Positions 1 to 58,799 of a stretch of DNA of 64,000 bases are shown one piece after another. The notes below the pieces were generated by a model. It ran no database searches. It had not been told where the DNA came from and saw nothing but the letters and a program-made list of their open reading frames with translations. The position numbers and the translations under genes are program-made. Source of the stretch: Chiloscyllium plagiosum (taxonomy: Eukaryota); assembly GCF_004010195.1 (NCBI RefSeq), contig NC_057758.1, positions 5,904,150-5,968,149 on the forward strand, in the 5' to 3' direction. The first letter of the stretch is position 1; each line of letters opens with the position of its first letter.

Positions 1-300
1 GACATGCACGCGAATTCCTAGAAGCATGGCATTCCAGCCTGAATTATATTAACAAACACATTGATTTGGATCCCACTTACCACCAACTGCGAAAAAGAAC
101 CGGAAGTGACATCACCATATGAAATGACGCCACCACAGGACATAGCATCACCAACCCAAGGGAACTCAACATATAGATAGAAATCGAGCTACACCACCAG
201 TGCTTCGTCCGGAGGCTCACTGATGATGTTACCTCATATGGTGGTGAATCATCTGAAAATGAAACTTCCATCTCAGCCACCAAACCTACATCCACAGATC
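1..300 (+). mobile_element. Penelope-like element 3' end (C-terminus of the GIY-YIG ORF plus terminal repeat with decayed hammerhead core)
   Basis: Frame from nt 3 reads HAREFLEAWHSSLNYINKHIDLDPTYHQLRK, typical of the PLE ORF C-terminus. CTGATGATGTTACC at ~220 matches the terminal repeat seen at 54439. Confidence 0.7.
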
Positions 301-5040: not shown

Positions 5041-8000
5041 CTTCAATCAGAGACAATGTAATCACTGCTCCTTGAAATTCAATGTTGAACTTCCAACATT
5101 ATTTGTTATTTTTGGTATTTTGTTGTAAGAAAGACATTCGTAATGAACTTTCAATTATATTTCCTTACTTGTCTTCTTTATATATAAGATGTTGTAATTA
5201 GATACCGCTGGATCTAAGATGGCGCTGGAAATTGTGACATTATACACTTCTCACTTTGCTTCTCTATGAACACGCTTGGCAACAAATTCCAATTATAAAT
5301 CGCGTATACTTTCTAATTCTAGTTTCCCCCAACTGCGTTTGGGGAAGTGAGCTCATCAGACTCACAATCCTCTGAAAGAAGCAGTAATTTCTCATCTCAG
5401 TTTTTAAACTACATCTATTGACTCTGTATCTTGGTTGAAACTAAACCACGAAAAAGGAATCATCTGTTCAATGTCCACTTTATCAGTTCCCTTTGTACTA
5501 AAAGTATCTCAAACAGATTACGACTCATTCTTCTGAACTCCATCATGAGGTTCTATTTCAAGCCCAAACTACTTACACTCCTTTAATTACAGCCTTCCCA
5601 AGTGTGGAAGCAACCTGGTGAGTCGCCTCTGAACTGTGTCCAGTGCCACTACATCTTTCCTCTAAAAAACTAACCGAACTTGGACACACAACTCCAACTG
5701 TGGTCTCAAGAAGTATTTATAATTGTAATGACAATTTTGTCTTTATATAAATCAGTCTGTTTGCAGTAAAAGCCAGGATTCAATTTTCCTTTCTTATTAT
5801 ATTCTGCATTATGTCACAGTGGTTCAGGAGGCCCGCAATTCAAGGACCCCAGGTACTTCTTAGGAATCACTAACTGAACGAAATTAAACAGGACGAGTCC
5901 ATGGAGGAGTTCGAAATCATATATAGTTATATGTCAGCGAGGGGCACCATGAAGGTGTGAAATAAGAAGTGACAAAGAAGGCATCCTATCGGGGCGAGGT
6001 GTGTAGGAGTTTCATACTTGGAGTAAACCATTAAAGAAGATGTTAAACTGCATAGACCCAATTTCAGAAAAGGTACAAACATGAGAGTGACACCTTTGCG
6101 TCTGGAAGGGTTTTGGATCATCACACAAGCATGATGGTACGACACATAGCCGCCAGTATCTGATATAGAATCAGGATAGACCTAAGAGACAGAATGAAGG
6201 TTCCTGCATAAGTTCCGACTCATAAAGTTGAATCTCTTGTTCCTCAGATCTACATGACCTGCTGCGCCTTTATCCAGCAACATGTTTTACAGATTTACAG
6301 ACAGAATCGCTTGATACTGCTTCAACGAAAGATTCTGTAGGTTGCTAATTGGGTATGACCTGAGCTTTAATGCAGTGCGATTCAAGCTTTCCTGCATCGT
6401 CATCAATGATGGTCTGTAAGAGTACCAGGAAGCCAAAGAGAGGAGGCAGTGTGTTTCTCAAACTCCACTCTGAACGCGTCGGAGTCTTAGTGACTGCTGT
6501 GGCGAGACAAACTATCCATATGTGAACAGAAAGAGATTTCTGCCATCGATAAATTGTCGTGTATGTAAGGGAATTGTTCTAACTAAACTGACAGCGAAAC
6601 CGAGAGGACGGACACTTCTGTTAAACATTCACCTCTGAAGAGGAACAGCCTTGCTTCTAGTCTCCATCCTGTCTGCCACTCTTCAGTGAGCTGCGGGAAC
6701 TGAGGTGGCCTTGGGCATTGTCCAACACGTCACTCTCTTTTGGTGGGGACTGTAGTCAAACTCTTTGATATTCAACGTCAAAATTTCTTCAAATTGGTTC
6801 TTCAAACAGTACAGTGTACATTGTGCAGCAGGTGCACAATGAGCAAAGACAAACAAATCCTTAAAAAAGCCATAAACATCTACTAGGTCTAGAGCTGCTT
6901 CAGCTCTTTGGAATTTTAGTTTTGGCTGGAGGAGCTCAATTTAAGTAAAGCAGTTCATTGCATTTTGGTAAGCCAAGTTAGGGCAGGAACTACATTGGTG
7001 GTGGGACATCTGGGGGTTGTTGTTGAACAGGGTCAGGGATACAGTTCCTTGAAAATTATGTTACTGATAGACGGGGTGGTGATGAAAGTGTTTGACACGC
7101 GTTCACTTTAACATGCAGAGCGTGGAATTAATCCCTTTTCTTTGTTAATGGTTAGTAAATGCGGATTGGCCGCTGACTTCATAAAAAGAGTACCCGTGAT
7201 CCAGTCAGCTCATTGTGACTTTGAGGAGCTCACAGAGAAAATGCAAAGAGCAATGTTTATTCTCCTGTGTTTTCTGATTCTGGCTGAGCCGATGATTGCT
7301 TCTGGTTCCGTGGTTGCGAGGCCTTTAAAACCAGGTGTGTGCTTATATCAATAGGCTTATGGAAGAGCAGGTAAAGGCCATTCATTTCTTCAAAACCTAC
7401 GCCCTTTCATATCGATGACTGTAACATGGATATGACGGGCAGATTAGTAACAAATTGGATTCTATCAAACCAGTGCGAGGGGATGCATTTGGGGAGGCCC
7501 ATCAAATCAAGATAACAGAGAAAGATTGTGAGGCCCCTGGGAAAGCACTGATGATCACAAGGAAACTGGTCTCCATATTCAGTGACTTCATAAGATATCC
7601 GGACAAGCAGATCAAGTCTTTAAGAAGGTTCATATGATAAATGCCTTTATTAGCTGCACTGCGACCTTCAAGAAACGTGATGCTGAAACAGCATAAATAA
7701 TTGCTCAGTCTGGAGTGATTAAATCGTGTGTGGTTCGAGAATATACATCATATAAAATTTGTAATTTTACTGAAGAGGGTGTCGAGCGGTTGTGGGGATT
7801 TGTCTGAATATTGCCTGGACTGGGTATTGGATCGCGTATTGACAGACTCGGCTTTTTTTCCTTTTAGAGAAGGAGATTTAGAAGGGACGTGATCGAGATG
7901 TGCAAATTTATGCGAGGCAGAGATAGGGTAGACAGGAAAAATGCTTTACTCCTTCATTGGTGGAACAATGAATAGGAAGCATAAGATATAGGTAACAGGC

Positions 8001-14999: not shown

Positions 15000-15398
15000 A
15001 GGCAAAGGTGAGGACTGCAGATGCTGGAAACCAGAGGTTAGATCAGAGTGGTGCTGGAAAAGCACAGCAGGTCAGGCAGCATCCGAGGAGCAGGAAAATT
15101 GACGTTTTGGGCAAAAGACCTTCATCAGGAATGGAGGCAGGGAGCTTCTGGGGTGGAGAGATAAATGGGAGAGGTGTGGGGCTGGGGAGAAGGTAGCAAA
15201 GAGTACAATAGGTGAATGGAGGTGGGGATGGAGTTGATAGGTCAGAGAGGAGGGTGGGGGATGGTAGCAAATAATACAGTAGGTGAATGGGGGTGGGGAT
15301 GGAGGTGATAAGTCAAAGGGGAGGGTGGAACTTCCCACCTCTCAGCTCCACCCTCGCCTCTGACCTATCAACTCCATCCCCACCCCCATTCACCTACC
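15000..15398 (-). mobile_element. Penelope-derived insertion with internal inversion and mutated hammerhead core (15101-15128)
   Basis: Minus strand CTGATGA-AGGTCTTTTGCCC-AAAACGTC. 14-bp TSD GTGTTA(T/G)AAAGTTT at 14986-14999 and 15399-15412. 15330-15398 is an inverted copy of ~15205-15260. Confidence 0.8.
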
Positions 15399-15977: not shown

Positions 15978-16134
15978 AGCTTAAAAATGTGTTGCTGGAA
16001 AAACGCAGCAGGTCAGGCAGCATCAAAGGAGAAGGAGAATCGACGTTTCGAGCATAAGCCCTTCTTCAGGAATCTTCAAGCCCAACACATTTTTAAGCTC
16101 TGATCTCCAGCATCTGCAGTCCTCACTTTCTCCA
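15978..16134. mobile_element. Penelope-derived mini-element with intact hammerhead core (- strand, 16042-16069)
   Basis: Minus strand CTGAAGA-A-GGGC-TTAT-GCTC-GAAACGTC. Perfect 13-bp TSD CGTACAAGATGAT at 15965-15977 and 16135-16147. Inverted pair AGCTTAAAAATGTGTTG / CAACACATTTTTAAGCT. Confidence 0.85.
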
Positions 16135-22139: not shown

Positions 22140-22325
22140 GTACAAATCTCTCTCCTTCCACCTTGAATCTTTAGCTGCTCTCCATTTCACTCCAATTCTA
22201 CTGACTTGTGATTGAAGGAAAAATGCTGAAACCAGAGGAATGCTCAGTGTCTCCAACAATCTCTCATTTGACAGGCTCTTTCTGTGACAGTTCTGACTTC
22301 ACTGTGTTTCTCTCTGACCCCTCAG

Positions 22326-22624
22326 GTATCAGTGGGGACATCATCATGAGCCAGTCTCCCCCGGTGCTGTCAGTGAGACTGGGACAGACTGCAACCATCA
22401 CCTGTACGGCCAGTCAAAATATTGATGATGATCTTTCCTGGTACCAGCAGCGAGAAGGTCAGAAGCCCAGTCTCCTAATCTATGGTGCAACAACTCGATT
22501 CACAGGAGTCTCTGAGCGATTCACCGGCAGTGGATACGATATAGAATTCACCCTGACAATCAGTAATGTACAGGAATTGGATGTTGGTGACTATTATTGT
22601 ATGCAAGATGAAGCCTACCCTCTA
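22326..22624 (+). CDS. IGKV: Ig kappa light chain V segment (germline, unrearranged, open frame)
   Basis: GISG/DIIMSQSPPVLSVRLGQTATITC-TASQNIDDDLS-WYQQREGQKPSLLIY-GATTRFT-GVSERFTGSG...FTLTISNVQELDVGDYYC-MQDEAYPL. Both Cys and the Trp are conserved; followed directly by a 12-RSS. Confidence 0.96.
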
Positions 22625-22652
22625 CACAGTGATACAGAGCCATACAAAAACC
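22625..22652 (+). other. V recombination signal sequence, 12-bp spacer (kappa configuration)
   Basis: CACAGTG-atacagagccat-ACAAAAACC; heptamer and nonamer are both consensus. Confidence 0.98.
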
Positions 22653-23137: not shown

Positions 23138-23176
23138 GGTTTTTGTGCAGCCTCTGCACTGGGAGCTCTCACTGTG
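23138..23176 (-). other. J recombination signal sequence, 23-bp spacer
   Basis: On +: GGTTTTTGT-(23 nt)-CACTGTG; both elements consensus. Confidence 0.98.
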
Positions 23177-29400: not shown

Positions 29401-29785
29401 CCAGAGAGGATCACAAAATGATGTTCACAGTCTCTGCATTTCTCCATCCCTACTCTCAATCTCACTGAGTTCTGATCACTGTCAATGAAATGATCCCCCA
29501 TTGATAGCCCTTCCAGCTGCACACATTCATTCCCTAAACAATAGTCCAAAACTGTCCCTTCTCTTTCACCATCACCATCTCAGGAGCAATTAGGGATGGG
29601 CAATAAATGCTGACCCTGCCAGTGACACTCACATCTCAAAAAGCAATTTCAAAAATGTCTGTTCTTTTGTTGGGGTTGTTAGGTATTGAGTGCAAAACTT
29701 CAAGCAAATTGTTTGTTAGTTAAAGTTCATAAAATTGAAATCCCTTTGAATGGCAGGGATTAAAATTGTTTCTCTTGTCTTTCAG

Positions 29786-30114
29786 GCCGTGAGAACTCTC
29801 AGCCCAAGCTGACCCTGCTGCCCCCCTCCCCAGAGCAGGTCAATGCCAAGGGCACTGCCACCCTGGTGTGCCTTGCCAATCACTTCTATCCCGATGAGCT
29901 GGAGGTGCAGTGGAAGAAGGACGGTGCAGTCATTTCGGACGGGGTTCAGACCAGCAGCTACCTGCGAGCTTCGGACAGCACCTACAGTGTCAGCAGCCTG
30001 CTGACCCTCTCTGGGTCTGCATGGGAGTCCAACGCTCGCTTCTCCTGTGCCCTCACACATGTGACCCTCCCCTCTCCCCTCAGCAAGAGCATCAGGAGAT
30101 CAGAATGTGTGTAG
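29786..30114 (+). CDS. IGKC: Ig kappa (type III/NS4-like) light chain constant exon
   Basis: Polypyrimidine-TTCAG acceptor whose phase matches J. (S)RENSQPKLTLLPPSPEQVNAKGTATLVCLANHFYPDELEVQWKKDG...DSTYSVSSLLTLS...FSCALTH...SKSIRRSECV*; penultimate Cys for the H-L bond. Confidence 0.97.
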
Positions 30115-37772: not shown

Positions 37773-38007
37773 GGTAAAAACAAGGACTGCAGATCCTGGG
37801 AACCAGATTCCAGATTAGAGTGGTGCTGGAAAAGCACAGCAGTTCAGGCAGCATCCGAGGAGCAGGAAAATCGCCGTTTCGGGCAAAGGCCTTTCATTGG
37901 GAATAGAGCCAGAGTACCTGCAGGGTGGAGAGATATCTCTCCACCCTGCAGGGACTCTGACTCTCTTGCTGATGAAGGGCTTTAGTCCAAAACGTCGATT
38001 TTCCTAA
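37773..38007. mobile_element. Penelope-derived fold-back element with a perfect 36-bp central palindrome and two mutated hammerhead cores
   Basis: Palindrome CCTGCAGGGTGGAGAGAT|ATCTCTCCACCCTGCAGG at 37917-37952; CTGATGAAGGGCTTTAGTCCAAAACGTC at 37969-37996; 10-bp TSD TTCCATGCTG at 37763-37772 and 38008-38017. Confidence 0.85.
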
Positions 38008-51018: not shown

Positions 51019-51160
51019 GAAGATCCTGAAGAAGGGCCTGTGCCCGAAACGTCGCGAATCTCCTGTTCCCTGGATGCTGCCTGACCTGCTGTGCTGTGCT
51101 GTTCCAGCAATAAAGTTTCAACTTTGATCTCCAGCATCTGCAGACCTCACTTTCTCCTCC
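51019..51160 (+). mobile_element. Penelope-derived mini-element with intact hammerhead core (51026-51053)
   Basis: CTGAAGA-A-GGGC-CTGT-GCCC-GAAACGTC; perfect 13-bp TSD TTCTTGAAGATCT at 51006-51018 and 51161-51173. Confidence 0.87.
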
Positions 51161-54100
51161 TTCTTGAAGATCTACATTAATGACTTGGATTTGAAAGCAG
51201 ATGGTATTATTTGTAGGTTTGCAGATGATATGGAAGGTGAGGGCTTTGTCCACAGTGAGGGGAATGGGCTCAGGTTACAGTCTGATGTCGATCAGATGAT
51301 AAACTGAGAATAGTGGCAGGTGTAGTTTACTACGGATCAGTGTGAGGTAATACCTCGGAAGATCTTATCAGTGAAGAACATACTTAATGAATTGAAGAAT
51401 GAAGAGAACTTGACGTACAAGTCCATAAATTTCTGAAGAAGCCTGCACAAGCTGACAAGGTGGGGAATAAATCAGAACTGGGAGAGGAAGGGAGCCCTAC
51501 TTCATGGTGGGGAGTGTTGCTAGAGCTACTTGAGAGGGTTTAACCTAATCTGGCAAGAGTGCAGGATTTTAAACACTCATACGGCCTGAAAGACGGTTAA
51601 CGTTGGTCCACAAGTTAAATAGAGCAATTTAAATAGACAAGGCAGTAAAGAGCACAGCCGGCAATGAGGAAAAACTGAATTAATAACCTGCATTTATTTC
51701 AAAGGAAGAGGCCTGACATCTAAGGCAGATAACTCAGGTCATGAATGGGAACATGGGATTGGGATATTGTCGGTATTACAGAAACACAGTGAGGGAAGGG
51801 CAGGACTGGCAGGTGAATGCTCGACGTCACTGATGCAACAGGAATGGCTGATAAGAAGGCAAGAGAGGAGAATTGTTGGTGATTTTGACTGGGGAATCAT
51901 CACAAAAACTAGTTATTCGTGCAGGATCGCCCAGTTAATCTGTAGTAGTGGATTTGAGAAATATGAATGCTTCGACACATTGATGTAATTGTACTGCAGG
52001 TCCCCAATAGTCAGTGGGAGATTTGAAGCAAATACATCGGGAGATTTCAGATATCTGTAATAATGATAGGGTTGGAATGGTTGAGGACTTTAACTTTCTA
52101 TTTTAACTGGGACTGCTATGCAGTTAGTTGAGAGCAATCTGTTGAATGTATTCAAGGAAAGTTTCTCAATCAATGTGTAAATGGCACATCTGGAGAAAGG
52201 GGTAAAACCTGACCTCCCCTTGCGAAAAGAGGTAGAGAGAGGCACTAAAGTATTCGTGGAGGAACACTTTGGCAAAGTGAGCACAATTCTTTTAGTTTGA
52301 AAATAGTTATGGAAAAGGACAGGCCTAGTCGACAAGTAATGTTATAAACTGTGGCAAGGCCAATCTTGATTGCATTGGGCAAGAACTTTCTAAAGTTGAT
52401 TGGTGAGTTTTCCAGGTAAAAGCAAGTCTAGCAAGTGGGAATACTATAAAAGTGAGATAAAATGAGCGTTTATGTCCATCATGTTCCTGTTGTGTGCAGG
52501 ACAATGCTGATAGAAAATTTGGGGAAAAATCTGGCTGACTATTGAGGCTCTGGTAAAGATACAGGAGGCAGATTTCAGGTGTAGCCAACTATATCAAGTG
52601 AATTCCTTGAGCAGCATATGGGCATAAGAATGCATCTTTAATGGAAACCAGGAAGGCAAAACGGGAAATGAAAATAGCTTTAGCAAAGAAAGTTACGGAG
52701 AATTGCAAGTGATTCTACAAGCGTATTAAGGGCACAAGAGTTAAAAGGGGCAAAATAAGGGGCCAAACCATCAATGAGGTCATCGATATGTGGAACATCA
52801 AGAGTTGGGTAAGATCCGAAGCAAATATTTCATTTCAGAACTTCCTGTGGAAAAAGACTGAGAACTCACGGAATGGAACAGTGGTGGCAATTACTGGAAT
52901 ATTGTTTGCAATTTTGATCTGCCTTTGACAGTTGAAAGCTTTGAGAAAATATTTGCCAGGACGTTGCCAGGGTTAGAGTGTTTGAGCGTCAGGGAGAAAT
53001 TGAATACGCTGGGGTTGTTCTCCCTGGAGCATCAGGGGTTCAGTGATGACCTCATAGACGTTTATAACATCATGGGGGAACATGGAAAACGAAACTAGAC
53101 AAGTTTTTTTTCCGCAGTATATTTGCTTCCAAAATGAGAGGGCATATGGTTCAGATGTTCGGGGATAAAAAAATGGTCTTGCAAAAACGCTTTAACGCGC
53201 AGGGTGATGCATGTATGGAATGAGCAGTGACAGGGAGTGTCAGAGACTGTTACAATTGTACTATTCAAAAGGCATCGGAATGGGTGTGTGAATAGAAAGG
53301 ATTTAAAGGCAGATTTGCCAAATACTGAAAAATGGGACTTCATTTATCACGGTTATCTGGTCAGCATGGACGAGTTGGTTCGGAGGGTCTTTCTTTTTGT
53401 ACTGTATATCTCCAAGACATTATGTCTGGAAAACAGATCACATTACAAAAGAGGCGATGATCTTGGTGTTAAAACACAAAATGGAGATATGTCCACAGAA
53501 CATGATCAAGTGTATCTCAGGACATTGCGAGAATTTCAGCAGGAAATTGCAGGGACCCTCGCAGATATATTTCGAATATTGAGAGCCATATGTGATGTGC
53601 TGGAATACGGGAGGCTAGCACATTGGACATGAAAGGAAATGGATATTGATGTATTGGGTGAAAAAGGCTGAAAAACTGCAAATGGAGTTCAATATGGGTG
53701 AACCTGAGGTAATGTATTTTCGTACAACAAACAGGGATAGAGCTTATATTATTAATGGTAGGGTCTTTGGTAGTGTTACAGAACAGGTGAGCTCAGGATT
53801 CGGGTGCATACGTCTTTGAAGTTTGCATCACATACAGACAATTTGGTTAGAATGTATGTGTGGCACGCTCGCCTCCATTGGGGGATTTCAAATGGGGACT
53901 CACATTTTTAAGATTAGAGGAGAGATATTTATTTTAAAATAAGACACAAAGGGCAAATTGTTACGCAAAGGATTGCTTATGTGTGGATCAGGACACAATG
54001 AAGGCAGAGCAGCAGATGTCCTGACTTCAGCAAGGCTTTGATGAGGTTTAGCATGGCACACTCGTCAGTAAGGTAAGATCACATTCGGTCTGGTAGAGTT

Positions 54101-54308
54101 GGCCAAATGGACACACAATTAAATTGACGTTGGAGACAGAAGGTGTTGAGAGAGAGGTTTGTTGTTATGATTGAATTCCTGCGGCCAGCAGTGTGCCGAA
54201 ATTATCGATGCTGGCACCATTGGTGGACATCATCCAGAGAAACAAGTTTGGTGACCATGTAACAGCCACTATAAGTTAAATGGTGAATGCCAAAATTAGT
54301 GGCATAGT

Positions 54309-54512
54309 CGCAAGGTTTGTAGCTCAGGTTGAGGTTTAGGGTGTAGGTTTGCTTGCTGAGCTGTAGTTTTGATATCCAGACGTTTCATTACCTGGCTAGG
54401 TAACATCATCAGTGACGACCGTCACTTGGAATTCGCCACTGATGATGTTACCTAGCCAGGTAATGAAACGTCTGGATATCAAAACAACAGCTCAGCGAGC
54501 AAACCTATACCT
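54309..54512. mobile_element. Penelope-derived hairpin element: 79-bp inverted arms, each with an intact hammerhead core
   Basis: Arms at 54340-54418 and 54433-54511; core CTGATGA-T-GTTACC-TAGCCA-GGTAAT-GAAACGTC on both strands; 13-bp TSD TTAGTGGCATAGT at 54296-54308 and 54513-54525. Confidence 0.9.
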
Positions 54513-55159
54513 TTAGTGGCATAGTGCCAGTGAGTACAATTATTGAAGGGACTCTTGATCAACTTGGACAGTGGGCCAAGAAATGAAAGATGGAGTTTAA
54601 TTCAGATGTTAGATTTGTTAAGAGAAACCAGGGAGGTCTAACACAGTTAAATGTAGATCCTGCGTAGTGTCGTCAAACAGAGAGAGATCAAGGGGTGTGG
54701 TTGCATTGCTACTTAGAAGTGGAATCACAGGTGGACAGAGTAAGTGAATGCAGCATTTTGCACGATTACCCTTATGGGTCAGAGCAGAGCGTACATGAGT
54801 TGGAGATATTTGTAACATTGTCCTCAATATTTCCTTAGGCAGAGGAGGCTACGGGGTGACCTTCGAAAGATTTATGAAACCATGCCGTTGTGGGGTAAGT
54901 CAGGTGAATTGCTAAGTGTAGTCGAACCCAAAACTAGGGATATATTATGAGGTGAGACAGCAAAGAATTAAAATGGAAGCTGATGGGCAATGTTATCCAC
55001 AGAGGATGAATCATAGATGGTATGAACTGCCAGAGGAAATGGGTAGAAACAAAAACAATTGCAGCATGCAAAAGGCATGAGTGCAGGAACATGGAGAGGA
55101 ACAGGTTGGAAGGGGTATACGTCAAAAGGAGGCAAATGCGCCTCCTACGCTTATGAAAG

Positions 55160-55805
55160 ACTTATGAAAGCTGAAGAAAACATGCAGTGTGTCAGGTTTC
55201 ATTGGTAGTGGGATTGAGTTCCGGAATCGCAATATCATGCTGCAACTATACAAAACGCTGGTACGGCCACACTTGGAATATTGTATATATTTCTGGTCGC
55301 CACATTACAGAAAGAATGTGGAAGCATTGGAAATGGTGCAGAGGAGATTTACCAGGATGTTGCCTGGTCTGGAGGGAAGGTCTTTTGAGGAAAGACTGAG
55401 AGACTTGTGTCTGTTCTCATTGAAAAGAAGAAGGGTTAGTGGGGAGTTGATAGAGACATACAAGATGATCAGAGGATTAGATAGGGTAGACAGGGAAATA
55501 TGTTTTCCCTACGATGATGACGTCAGCTTGTACCAGAGGACACAACTACAAATTGAGGGGTAATAGTTTTAAGACAGACGTCAGAGGCAAGTTCTTTATG
55601 CAGAGAGTCGTAAGGGCGTGGAATGCCCTACCTGCTAAGCTAGTCAATTCAGCCACATTAGGGAGATTTAAACAACCAACAGGTAAGCACATGGACGATT
55701 TTGGGATAGTGTAAGTGGACGAGCTGAGAATAGTTTACAGGTCGGCGCAACATTGTGGGGCGAAGGGCCTGTTCTGCGCTGTATTGCTCTATGTTCTATG
55801 TTCTA
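55160..55805 (+). mobile_element. Younger CR1 3' fragment
   Basis: MLQLYKTLVRPHLEYCIYFWSPHYRK..LEMVQRRFTRMLPG; TRGHNYKL; (TTCTATG)n tail. Confidence 0.92.
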
Positions 55806-58799
55806 AAGTTTGTTAGCGTGGATGACGTGGGCCGAATGGTCTGGTTCCGTGCTACATGACTCTATGTCTCCAGTTATCAGAGGAGAAGACTACTGAGATG
55901 AGGATGTTGTAGAAATTGAAGAAGTTTCACCGACGGTCGTGTGGATTGGAGGATGTTTCAAATATGTGGAGGGATTGTCGAGATGGAAGTAGATTACAGG
56001 AACAGGAACTCTTATAGGTGTTAGAATGATTGAATACACCTATTCACAAGACATGTCATAAGTACAGTGATGGAGAGGGAACACAGTATAGGAAGATCCC
56101 AGGCAGTTTACCAAACTATCGTGGAAGTCCTACTTTGAGCTCTGTTGTACTGATCCTCACTAATACAGCACAGGCCTGGATTGATAACTGTGAGCTCCCT
56201 CTGTTGTCTTAGTACAATAGACTTCAAGTAGGGTTAGTGATTGAGCCTGGTATTTTTTCAACTGTACACCTCCTCCAGCACTGTTTTTTATGTCAAGTCT
56301 GTTAGTCATTGTTTGTATCCCTCATATTGCTCTGTGGTCTGTGCACTGTAAGTGATTTCACCTCGCTGCAGGACTTATTTAAATGTCTAGATCTTCCTAC
56401 CCATTGTCTATCTGGCTGAACAACCATCTTCAATGTGGTGACGAGGGAGACACCCAGCAGTTGCAAAAGAATTGATTCAGGATCTTACTGACTACAGCGC
56501 AAATCGAGGGCCGTAGTGCCTGTTCTGCGCTGTATTTTTCTATGTTCTATGTTCTTTGTTCTACCTGTGGGAGACAGTAAAATAGACAAAATCTGAAATT
56601 AAACTGATGACGTGAGGGTTACACATGGAGAATGACACTGAATCCCGGAGTGACCTGGAGAGTCCATGTCTCCATCCTTGGCCTGTGCAGCCTCGTTTCT
56701 GCATTGTAGTGTTCTGTTGGCTCAGGGGCTGGGTAGCTGTAACAGCGAGAGGCGCTGTCAGTGGCAGCAATTAGATCAACATAGTGATGAACATCACATG
56801 GAGGGTGACTGAGTGATATCAAAACAGTGCAGTAAAACTTCAGTATTAAATAATTGTGCGGGATGAAGTGGGTTTTGATTCAGGGTGCACTGGGATGAGC
56901 AGATTGTGAGCAGGCGAAATGGTGGCCTAGTCGTATTATCACCATACAATTTACACAAAAACTCAGTTGATTCGAATCCCACTATTACAAGTGGTCTATA
57001 GTGAATTAGATGCTTCGGAAAGAAAATGTAATTAAAAATCTGCAAATGAGTATTAAACAACTGCTGATGTTAAAAAATCCATCTGTCGCAATCTTGCCCT
57101 TTATGCAAGGCCATCTGCCATCCTCACCTGCTCTGGGCATCATGATATATCTCCACAACAACAGCAATGTGGTTGCCTCTGAACCGACTATTGAAAGGGC
57201 TCAGCAAGCCACTCCATTCAAGTGCAACTAGAAGTAGGTAAGAAATGCTGTCCAACCAGAGACACCCAAATCCCACGAATGAATAAAAAAAATTCCATTG
57301 GCTTGGCACCACTGGAACAGTGCACAGACCAGTGTCCTGGTCAATCGTGTCATTAAGTTTGTGGACAGGGCTTTTAATTGACCGAGAGATTGCAAGGACA
57401 GTGTTCAGCTGAAAGGAGCTTTCCAAATCTAAAGTGGAAAGGTGATGCTTTGGAACAGCATGAGGATGTGAATGAAGACAAACAGGAAATTCTGGTCAAA
57501 AGAAATGTTTCATCGTTTTTTTTTGGAATGGAAAAATATCTCAATGAATTGTGACATTGAGATAAATGAGATTTAATCACCAGAGAGACGTGCTTACACG
57601 ATTAACAAAAAATGGAACATTAATATTCAAAGGTACGCTCAGGCAGAATAAGAAAGCAGGATGGGTAACAATGAAAGTAATGGATAACAAAGCCATTACA
57701 GAAAAAGCATTTCACACATTCTATGCAGCTGAATCAATATCAATGCATATTTTGGTAAATACGTGTCAAAAGTACAAGTAGCTGAACAGTTCTAGGGCGA
57801 CAAACGGCAGTTTTATGATTATCACTGAATTGAAGAGGAATTACTTAGTATTTGTAACAAAGCCAGTGTGATAATTTTATGAGACTTCAATGGTCATATT
57901 ATCTTAGATACTCAACTTGGCAAGACTGATATTCGGAAAGGAGTTCAGAGAACTGTTTTGTCAGTATCTCTTTGAATAACACATTGTGCAATTTGGTTCG
58001 GGACGTAACTATCTCAGGTCGCCCTTTCTGCGATGAAGCTGAGTGAGTAAGCCGTGCCACATCGGGAGATCCTCCGGGAAATTGTGATATAATGAAATTC
58101 AAATCAGTTCCGAAGTTAAAATGACTAGAGGAAGGACAAGCTAAATTGGAACAGAAACATAAATAGTTTCCTGTAAGTGAACTGTGGAATACATTTGAAG
58201 AACCAAAACATGAGCAAAAAGACATGCTATTGAAACAGTAAAAAATACAGCAAAAAATTCACGTCTGACCCTCACTTAGGACAGAAACGATCCGGTTAAA
58301 ATCAGAGAGATTCAGAACGCTTCTGAAGACAAAACGATCAGTTTTAAAGAACATTTCTCGTTTATTAACAGACAATGGGCTACCAAAATATGGAAGTCAT
58401 GGTAAAGGGGATTGCAATATGTCTCCGAGCAGGAGGAGTGTAGTCACAAGTCGACACATTGTCAAACTTTAAGGAGATGATAGAAACAGGGAGGGTTCAC
58501 TGTGCTGGAAGTGGTGAGTCGACATTTGAAGTGGCAGGGGCCTCAATTATGTTTTTAAAAAGTACGATTTTCTGCAGCTTGAGGTATTTGCAGAGGAAAC
58601 ATGTCCACATCCATTCTTAGGGTGAGGGTACAAGTGGATGGGCGATCAAACTTTGCTCACCGGTACTTGCCCAGAGGCGGCTCAGTATCACCAATATTGC
58701 CGTGAGATGGGCGTTACATTTTGGCCAAACCAGGAAAAAATACCGACTGTCCTTCAATAATGGATATCAGAGAAAGAGTTAAGTATTTTTCCAGATAAT

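Follow-up and report, generated by a model that had tools for sequence, protein, structure and literature searches.

The endonuclease-bearing (EN+) Penelope-like elements (PLEs) and the hammerhead ribozymes that PLEs carry are the closest described systems, and the following data were found in the available portions of the literature. Arkhipova et al. (2013; PMC3846280) described two inverted repeats, one of which has a 31-bp tail, together with a target-site duplication (TSD), and Craig et al. (2021; PMC8557442) gave a length of 30–40 bp for the PLE tail. In metazoan PLEs, Cervera and De la Pena (2014; PMC4209133) reported dual hammerheads lying near one another (~100–700 bp) on opposite strands. 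According to Frangieh et al. (2024; PMC11167929), the PLE protein of the lizard Anolis cuts and extends both strands, two internal start sites in an AC-rich stem-loop, 111–118 nt into the ORF, bracket the tail, the start codon is placed at stem II, and mutation of the hammerhead left insertion unaffected.

In the current study, a 204-base hairpin at 54309–54512 of the window (the whole stretch of 64,000 nucleotides that was analyzed) was compared with these systems. Very probably, one insertion event placed two 5'-truncated ends of an abundant PLE here in head-to-head orientation, the likely cause being that its reverse transcriptase (RT) began copying at both cut target strands; the hammerheads that it contains are predicted to be passengers with no activity. 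The layout itself is already known, since the literature contains both inverted repeats that have a tail and a TSD and hammerheads paired on opposite strands, and the element is ordinary in this respect.

The two arms (54340–54418 and 54433–54511, 79 nt each) are 75/79 complementary with 14 nt between them, which agrees with the near-perfect inverted arms and spacer of the original prediction, but the arms proved to be asymmetric: the minus arm alone carries a 31-nt extension (54309–54339), and the gap from TSD to arm is 31 nt on the left and 1 nt on the right. The minus copy of the PLE terminal repeat (54340–54420, minus strand) reaches only 8 nt past the hammerhead core before its 5' truncation, and the family extends past 54420 in 14 reads. 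The plus copy (54422–54512, plus strand) reaches 17 nt past the core on its 5' side and lacks a tail, its last base being ambiguous with the target; family sequence upstream of 54422 was found in 22, 50, and 32 contigs of the DNA runs and in 14 reads. The inversion junction, 54420/54422 with a single G at 54421 that is assigned to neither copy, is located inside a 6-bp palindrome (AGTGAC/GTCACT, 54411–54426). The 14-nt spacer consists of 2 nt of the minus arm, the single G, and 11 nt of family sequence, so that 81 nt are common to the two arms, 6 of them mismatched; because the family runs on past both 54422 and 54420 in other copies, the spacer is arm and family sequence rather than a designed loop. 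The folded element RNA has a minimum free energy of −147.3 kcal/mol (z −22), and none of 200 shuffles was equally stable.

The TSD copies at 54296–54308 and 54513–54525 are identical at 13/13 positions, and a 13-mer repeat appeared in 0 of 300 random window draws with the same search geometry, draws near N being left out. DNA evidence came from contigs and reads of three sequencing runs, one of a related species (organism B, run X9) and two of organism A, and these were aligned, along with RNA run X21, to 53950–54900 at 85% likeness; the four runs were taken from 24 that were listed. One X9 contig (contig 17) spans both flanks and lacks exactly 217 nt, and 13 letters can be assigned to either side of the gap; this is the empty site with one copy of the TSD. 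Between the X9 flanks and the window there are 72 differences in 652 positions (11% between species). No empty-site joint was listed in the two organism-A runs, whose contigs drop rare variants. The perfect 13-bp TSD that had been claimed for this element is thus established by the repeat itself and by the empty site. An assembly artefact was rejected by the same two observations, and a contig of run X2 is identical over 53950–54337, reaching 29 letters past the left junction, just under the 31-letter rule. A MITE of a DNA transposon was rejected on the asymmetry of the ends.

The element breaks a decayed LINE RT region at 54020–54800 (plus strand, limits approximate), which we take to belong to a CR1-like clade, as named from motifs. 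The flanks join across the insertion point in an alignment (71% over 360 nt) to another of the window's LINE copies, and a peptide from a LINE RT region in the window has a match in the right flank, supporting insertion into an older LINE. Elsewhere, the window holds an immunoglobulin light-chain-like cluster (22205–22652, 23138, and 29764–30114), which comprises a V exon whose 12-spacer recombination signal is at 22625, a recombination signal of the 23-spacer type at 23138, and a C1-set exon. To judge by these immunoglobulin V and C1 domains, the DNA is probably that of a shark.

The family of the arms is clearly a very abundant PLE family, with a summed depth of 1e5 to 6.5e5 on the arms, which is not a copy number, as opposed to 7–17 on the left flank. 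The 31-nt extension (54309–54339, minus strand) corresponds to the PLE tail, ends at the outer family terminus with loose ends before 54312, and forms the 3' strand of an AC-rich stem-loop (−7.6 kcal/mol; 47/63 nt are A or C). Near 54312, at least 129, 67, and 113 contigs of the three DNA runs and 50 RNA reads leave the family into heterogeneous AT-rich sequence. At the inner 3' terminus, 37 X9 contigs leave at 54335, not at 54340, this being one of the three DNA runs among the rows listed, and the two family 3' termini are ~25–31 nt apart. Both arms carry the same base at 54367/54484, where 94–99% of the family depth is G, and this shared non-family base suggests that the arms likely derive from one source element, or that conversion occurred later.

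In-frame ATGs at 54442 and 54445 sit at stem II, and the tail end follows 98–101 nt onward in the AC-rich hairpin. By comparison with PMC11167929, these ATGs are likely the start of the PLE ORF. No protein relative, which is weak evidence, and no Pfam family was found for the element's own 41-residue frame, and no full-length parent element was recovered. A diverged relative of the terminal repeat, cut by the window edge, is located at 1–296 (plus strand) and is a sister subfamily of the element's arms; it contains the C-terminus of a GIY-YIG endonuclease (3–119), a TATA-like box at 172, and a decayed hammerhead at 220, and its positions 217–293 show 75% identity to the arm over 77 nt. The peptide from 3–119 matched 40 proteins at E ≤ 0.001, some of its best matches being spurious ones to unrelated TPR proteins; among the 27 that were domain-scanned, GIY-YIG was found at E ≤ 0.01 in 6, and one protein (P0018) had both RVT_1 and GIY-YIG above the cut-off. 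Through this 75%-identical relative, the terminal repeat is tied, indirectly, to an ORF for GIY-YIG endonuclease and RT. The traits of EN+ PLE insertions present at the locus are the 31-nt tail at one end, the adjacent inverted 5'-truncated copy, and the TSD with an empty allele. Taken with the family termini and the GIY-YIG-linked relative, tail and TSD support the PLE origin proposed earlier.

Regarding the ribozymes, CTGATGA occurs at 54439 (plus) and 54412 (minus), followed in both arms by an extra T, stem II (GTTACC/GGTAAT), and GAAAC-GTC, so the sequence does carry a hammerhead core on each strand, as had been described. The plus copy (54436–54475) has a stem I of 3 bp (CCA/TGG), an extra U, a stem II of 6 bp, and an ACGU palindrome without loop 3; C17 is 54472, after which cleavage is predicted. 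The stem I sequence and the cut site are as originally given, the cleavage itself being a prediction. In the minus copy (54376–54415), stem I is weakened to U-G/C-G/A-U, and the predicted cut lies between 54379 and 54378. Every feature of the core in the available portion of the PMC4209133 descriptor is present (CUGANGA/GAAA/NUH, the extra nucleotide after A9, and the palindromic helix III), and this fit supports the assignment to minimal type I hammerheads with a palindromic ACGT helix III. The helices measure 6–7 bp (helix II) and 3 bp (helix I) with a G-U closing pair, as against ~7–8 bp, 4–5 bp, and G10.1-C11.1 in the descriptor.

The stem II closing pair is thus G-U and not the usual G-C, and among 112 distinct comparison motifs fetched by a core-only pattern, G-U was found in 15 and G-C in 97. 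Stem II of at least 4 bp was present in 60 of these motifs (shuffled mean 7.5, maximum 17) and stem I of at least 3 bp in 42 (shuffled mean 5.7, maximum 14); since both counts exceed those of the shuffles, the motif class is structured. The covariance-model search proposed earlier did not bear the assignment out, as Rfam hammerhead families gave no match at E ≤ 10 in 53000–56000 or 54425–54512. Rfam miRNA matches scored 22–35 bits against gathering scores of 70–90, and a miRNA identity was rejected, as scores this far below gathering reflect the hairpin alone. Around the hammerhead, the arms share a 49-bp core free of mismatches (54366–54414/54437–54485; post hoc p 0.02–0.09), which could reflect arm-to-arm conversion or constraint. 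At 5359 of the window (minus strand), another CTGATGA...GAAAC match has a longer middle segment, falls outside the hammerhead families here, and may be due to chance.

As far as the available portions of these sources describe, the locus is comparable with EN+ PLE insertions having inverted pLTRs, tail, and TSD (PMC3846280, PMC8557442) in its head-to-head 5'-truncated copies, its 31-nt tail at one end, a TSD within 8–14 bp, and its short junction palindrome, but differs in that the copies are only ~90–110 nt with no ORF body between the arms. With the hammerheads of PMC4209133, it shares the core, the extra nucleotide between 9 and 10.1, the palindromic 15.2–16.2, the long helix II, and the short helix I, whereas its closing pair is G10.1-U11.1 instead of G-C, helix I has just 3 bp, and the two cores lie 26 nt apart, under the ~100–700 bp spacing. 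The Poseidon element of Anolis (PAc; PMC11167929) is similar by description, with an ATG at the start of stem II, an AC-rich stem-loop ~100 nt downstream, and two termini that define the tail; the available portion of its main text contains no analysis of short fold-back copies. Non-LTR retrozymes (bioRxiv 10.64898/2026.07.22.740005), as far as the accessible portion of that preprint goes, are likewise non-coding and PLE-derived with a type I hammerhead, but they are head-to-tail tandems with at least two ribozymes on the same strand, while the element here is inverted with one ribozyme per strand.

Concerning the formation of the inversion, synthesis likely began at each cut end, because the 3' ends of both copies face outward to the TSD. 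A trans-acting PLE protein would make a 13-nt staggered cut, after which the top-strand end may prime at the outer start site and so acquire a tail, and the bottom-strand end may use the inner one and acquire none; both cDNAs would stop after ~90–110 nt and be joined via a few bases of fold-back or microhomology. Each arm would contain a hammerhead only because it is long enough to reach the motif. Priming on two strands is thus the likely route, as judged from the anatomy of the element and the lizard biochemistry in vitro.

The alternative that survives best keeps the same PLE identity and supposes that one cDNA (or else an antisense template) was copied from itself after folding back on the junction palindrome. 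Self-priming from junction palindromes was proposed in the available portion of Arkhipova et al. (PMC3846280), and the 6-bp palindrome at the junction and the non-family base shared by both arms are what it would leave. However, the plus arm has 9–11 nt of family sequence missing from the minus arm, so that pure self-copying needs a second contact with the template, and the two ends coincide or nearly coincide with two termini found throughout the family, which two start sites would predict. We regard self-priming as unlikely, though deserving of serious consideration.

Within two-strand priming, the 5' end of the plus arm allows a further reading. The arm opens with TCACT (54422–54426), an initiator-like word that is quoted for a rotifer PLE in the available portion of PMC3846280, and this word lies ~30 nt after the TATA-like box seen in longer copies and in the relative. 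Three family junctions resume at 54422–54424, two of them at 54424 and, of these, one with a single extra G, although these counts are very small and a junction lying further upstream is not placeable on this reference. Tentatively, and with the odds rather against it, the plus arm may represent the full length of a short capped RNA from a terminal-repeat promoter; PLE RT, having started internally, would then run off the 5' end, much as retroviral strong-stop DNA is made, and hairpins would be built when a protein dimer does this at the two cut strands. The extra G at the junction is what a copied cap would leave, and may be a hint in this direction. In a narrow open-licence literature search, neither of the two papers returned used the term 'strong-stop'.

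Under the preferred reading of a two-ended insertion, the ribozymes are probably inactive, and the folding predictions agree with this. In both full read-through transcripts, the nine hammerhead pairs had a probability of 0 to eight decimals, while in isolated arms stem II reached 0.87–0.94 and stem I 0.38–0.45 or 0.01. As the antisense arm is made first, each transcript has one sense ribozyme, and loop 3 is absent, neither a monomer nor a cis dimer would form; as helix III lacks a loop, activity would need two copies of the same strand. When two copies were cofolded without constraint, a different duplex was obtained and not the dimeric hammerhead. These predictions support the earlier proposal that a transcript of either strand holds a ribozyme and its own antisense and would be self-silenced, the pairing probability being ~0. 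Such predicted self-silencing in a read-through transcript follows from the geometry alone, and no selection is needed.

It could also be supposed that the hairpin was co-opted, either to supply dsRNA or small RNA or as a self-silenced ribozyme under regulation. Its transcription would yield a duplex of 80 bp, the arms are identical over their central 49 bp, and the PLE family is present in RNA, with 189 reads in run X21. This run is single-cell poly(A) RNA, of which ~2% was read, and is weak for short or unadenylated RNA. Against co-option, all 189 reads fit only partly (2/189 at ≥99% likeness), 0 reads fell on the unique left flank in ~2% of this one poly(A) run, the miRNA matches are far below the gathering scores, and the element is absent in the related species, lies in a decayed LINE, and keeps no promoter. 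We consider co-option very unlikely. The family's TATA-like box upstream is lacking from this copy, which is likely dead. The arms differ at 6/81 positions (95% interval 2.7–16%), as compared with 11% between species (72/652), and this divergence indicates that the insertion is not very young. It is lineage-specific and probably not recent, and the original prediction of a young unit is not upheld.

The least probable of the readings, and one that we can hardly credit, is that the 204-bp hairpin is a mobile non-autonomous unit, either a palindromic retrozyme or MITE-like, which is transcribed and reinserted whole: its clean TSD, near-symmetric arms, identical ribozyme cores, and one X9 junction at a depth of 59.5 (3.5 times the flank depth of 16.8, with unknown letters between) would suit such a unit, but its ends are asymmetric, unlike the TIRs of transposases, there are no tandem arrays as in retrozymes, and the other head-to-head junctions counted for the family differ from its own. 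At least 11 other head-to-head junctions of the PLE family were found, and all differ, whereas copies with the exact 54420/54422 junction map collinearly and hence fall outside this count. They were 54336>54487, 54336>54490, 54353>54424, 54353>54489, 54357>54422, 54361>54424, 54361>54489, 54362>54488 (in two inserts), 54362/54420, and 54378>54480; left out were 54380/54467, whose opposite strands read as a deletion of 2 nt placed across the two arms, and 54331>54395, both ends of which fall in one arm. Some come from the sister subfamily, with blurred breakpoints, and 10 of the 11 have a depth of 3.3–12.4, near single copy. The 54420/54422 junction was bridged by 0 among the 24 pieces listed of 9892, and the TSD is the sole direct repeat in 53800–55000. 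In most of the other junctions, the arms are too short for a hammerhead on both, and many fold-backs have one hammerhead or none. The varied junctions argue against a self-propagating hairpin family, and the earlier idea of a separate, young unit having a role of its own is not supported, the breakpoints being unique among the at least 11 junctions and the family extending past both of its own.

Three further TSD-bounded fold-backs in the window belong to a different hammerhead family and have different centers, two of them with a single hammerhead. The first, of a second hammerhead family (15978–16134), has a 13-bp TSD, a hammerhead on the minus arm only, and a plus arm of ~19 nt followed by a ~35-nt tail. 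A longer one of the same second family (~15000–15398) has a 14-bp TSD with one mismatch and one hammerhead. In the third (37773–38007), which is flanked by a 10-bp TSD, both of the two hammerheads are decayed, and the one-sided extension, at ~91 nt, exceeds the usual tail length. A solo hammerhead-headed insertion with a 13-bp TSD was also observed at 51019–51160; it starts ~7 nt upstream of the core, near the start of the copy at 16069.

In unrelated metagenome contigs, fold-backs accounted for 17 of 120 hammerhead loci (15 of the 95 where the upstream DNA suffices). Four of the 15 inspected (L041, L049, L077, and L079) had a TSD of 10–14 bp and a one-sided extension of 28–35 nt, and the other 11 had no repeat, only 7-mers, or repeats offset on both sides. 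The family-specific pattern gave 0 loci in the metagenome contigs and 0 in viral contigs. In one locus (L120:287–633), the fold-back center encodes a peptide like an endonuclease C-terminus, resembling PLE endonucleases by eye.

By itself, the locus matters little, as one of very many PLE stubs in the genome. It is, at the same time, a clean teaching example, with an empty site, TSD, tail, and both ribozyme copies in one place. Analyzed in bulk, such junctions could separate two-strand priming from self-priming in PLE integration. If the strong-stop reading were true, the many junctions of this genome would be a direct record of an unresolved step of PLE integration.
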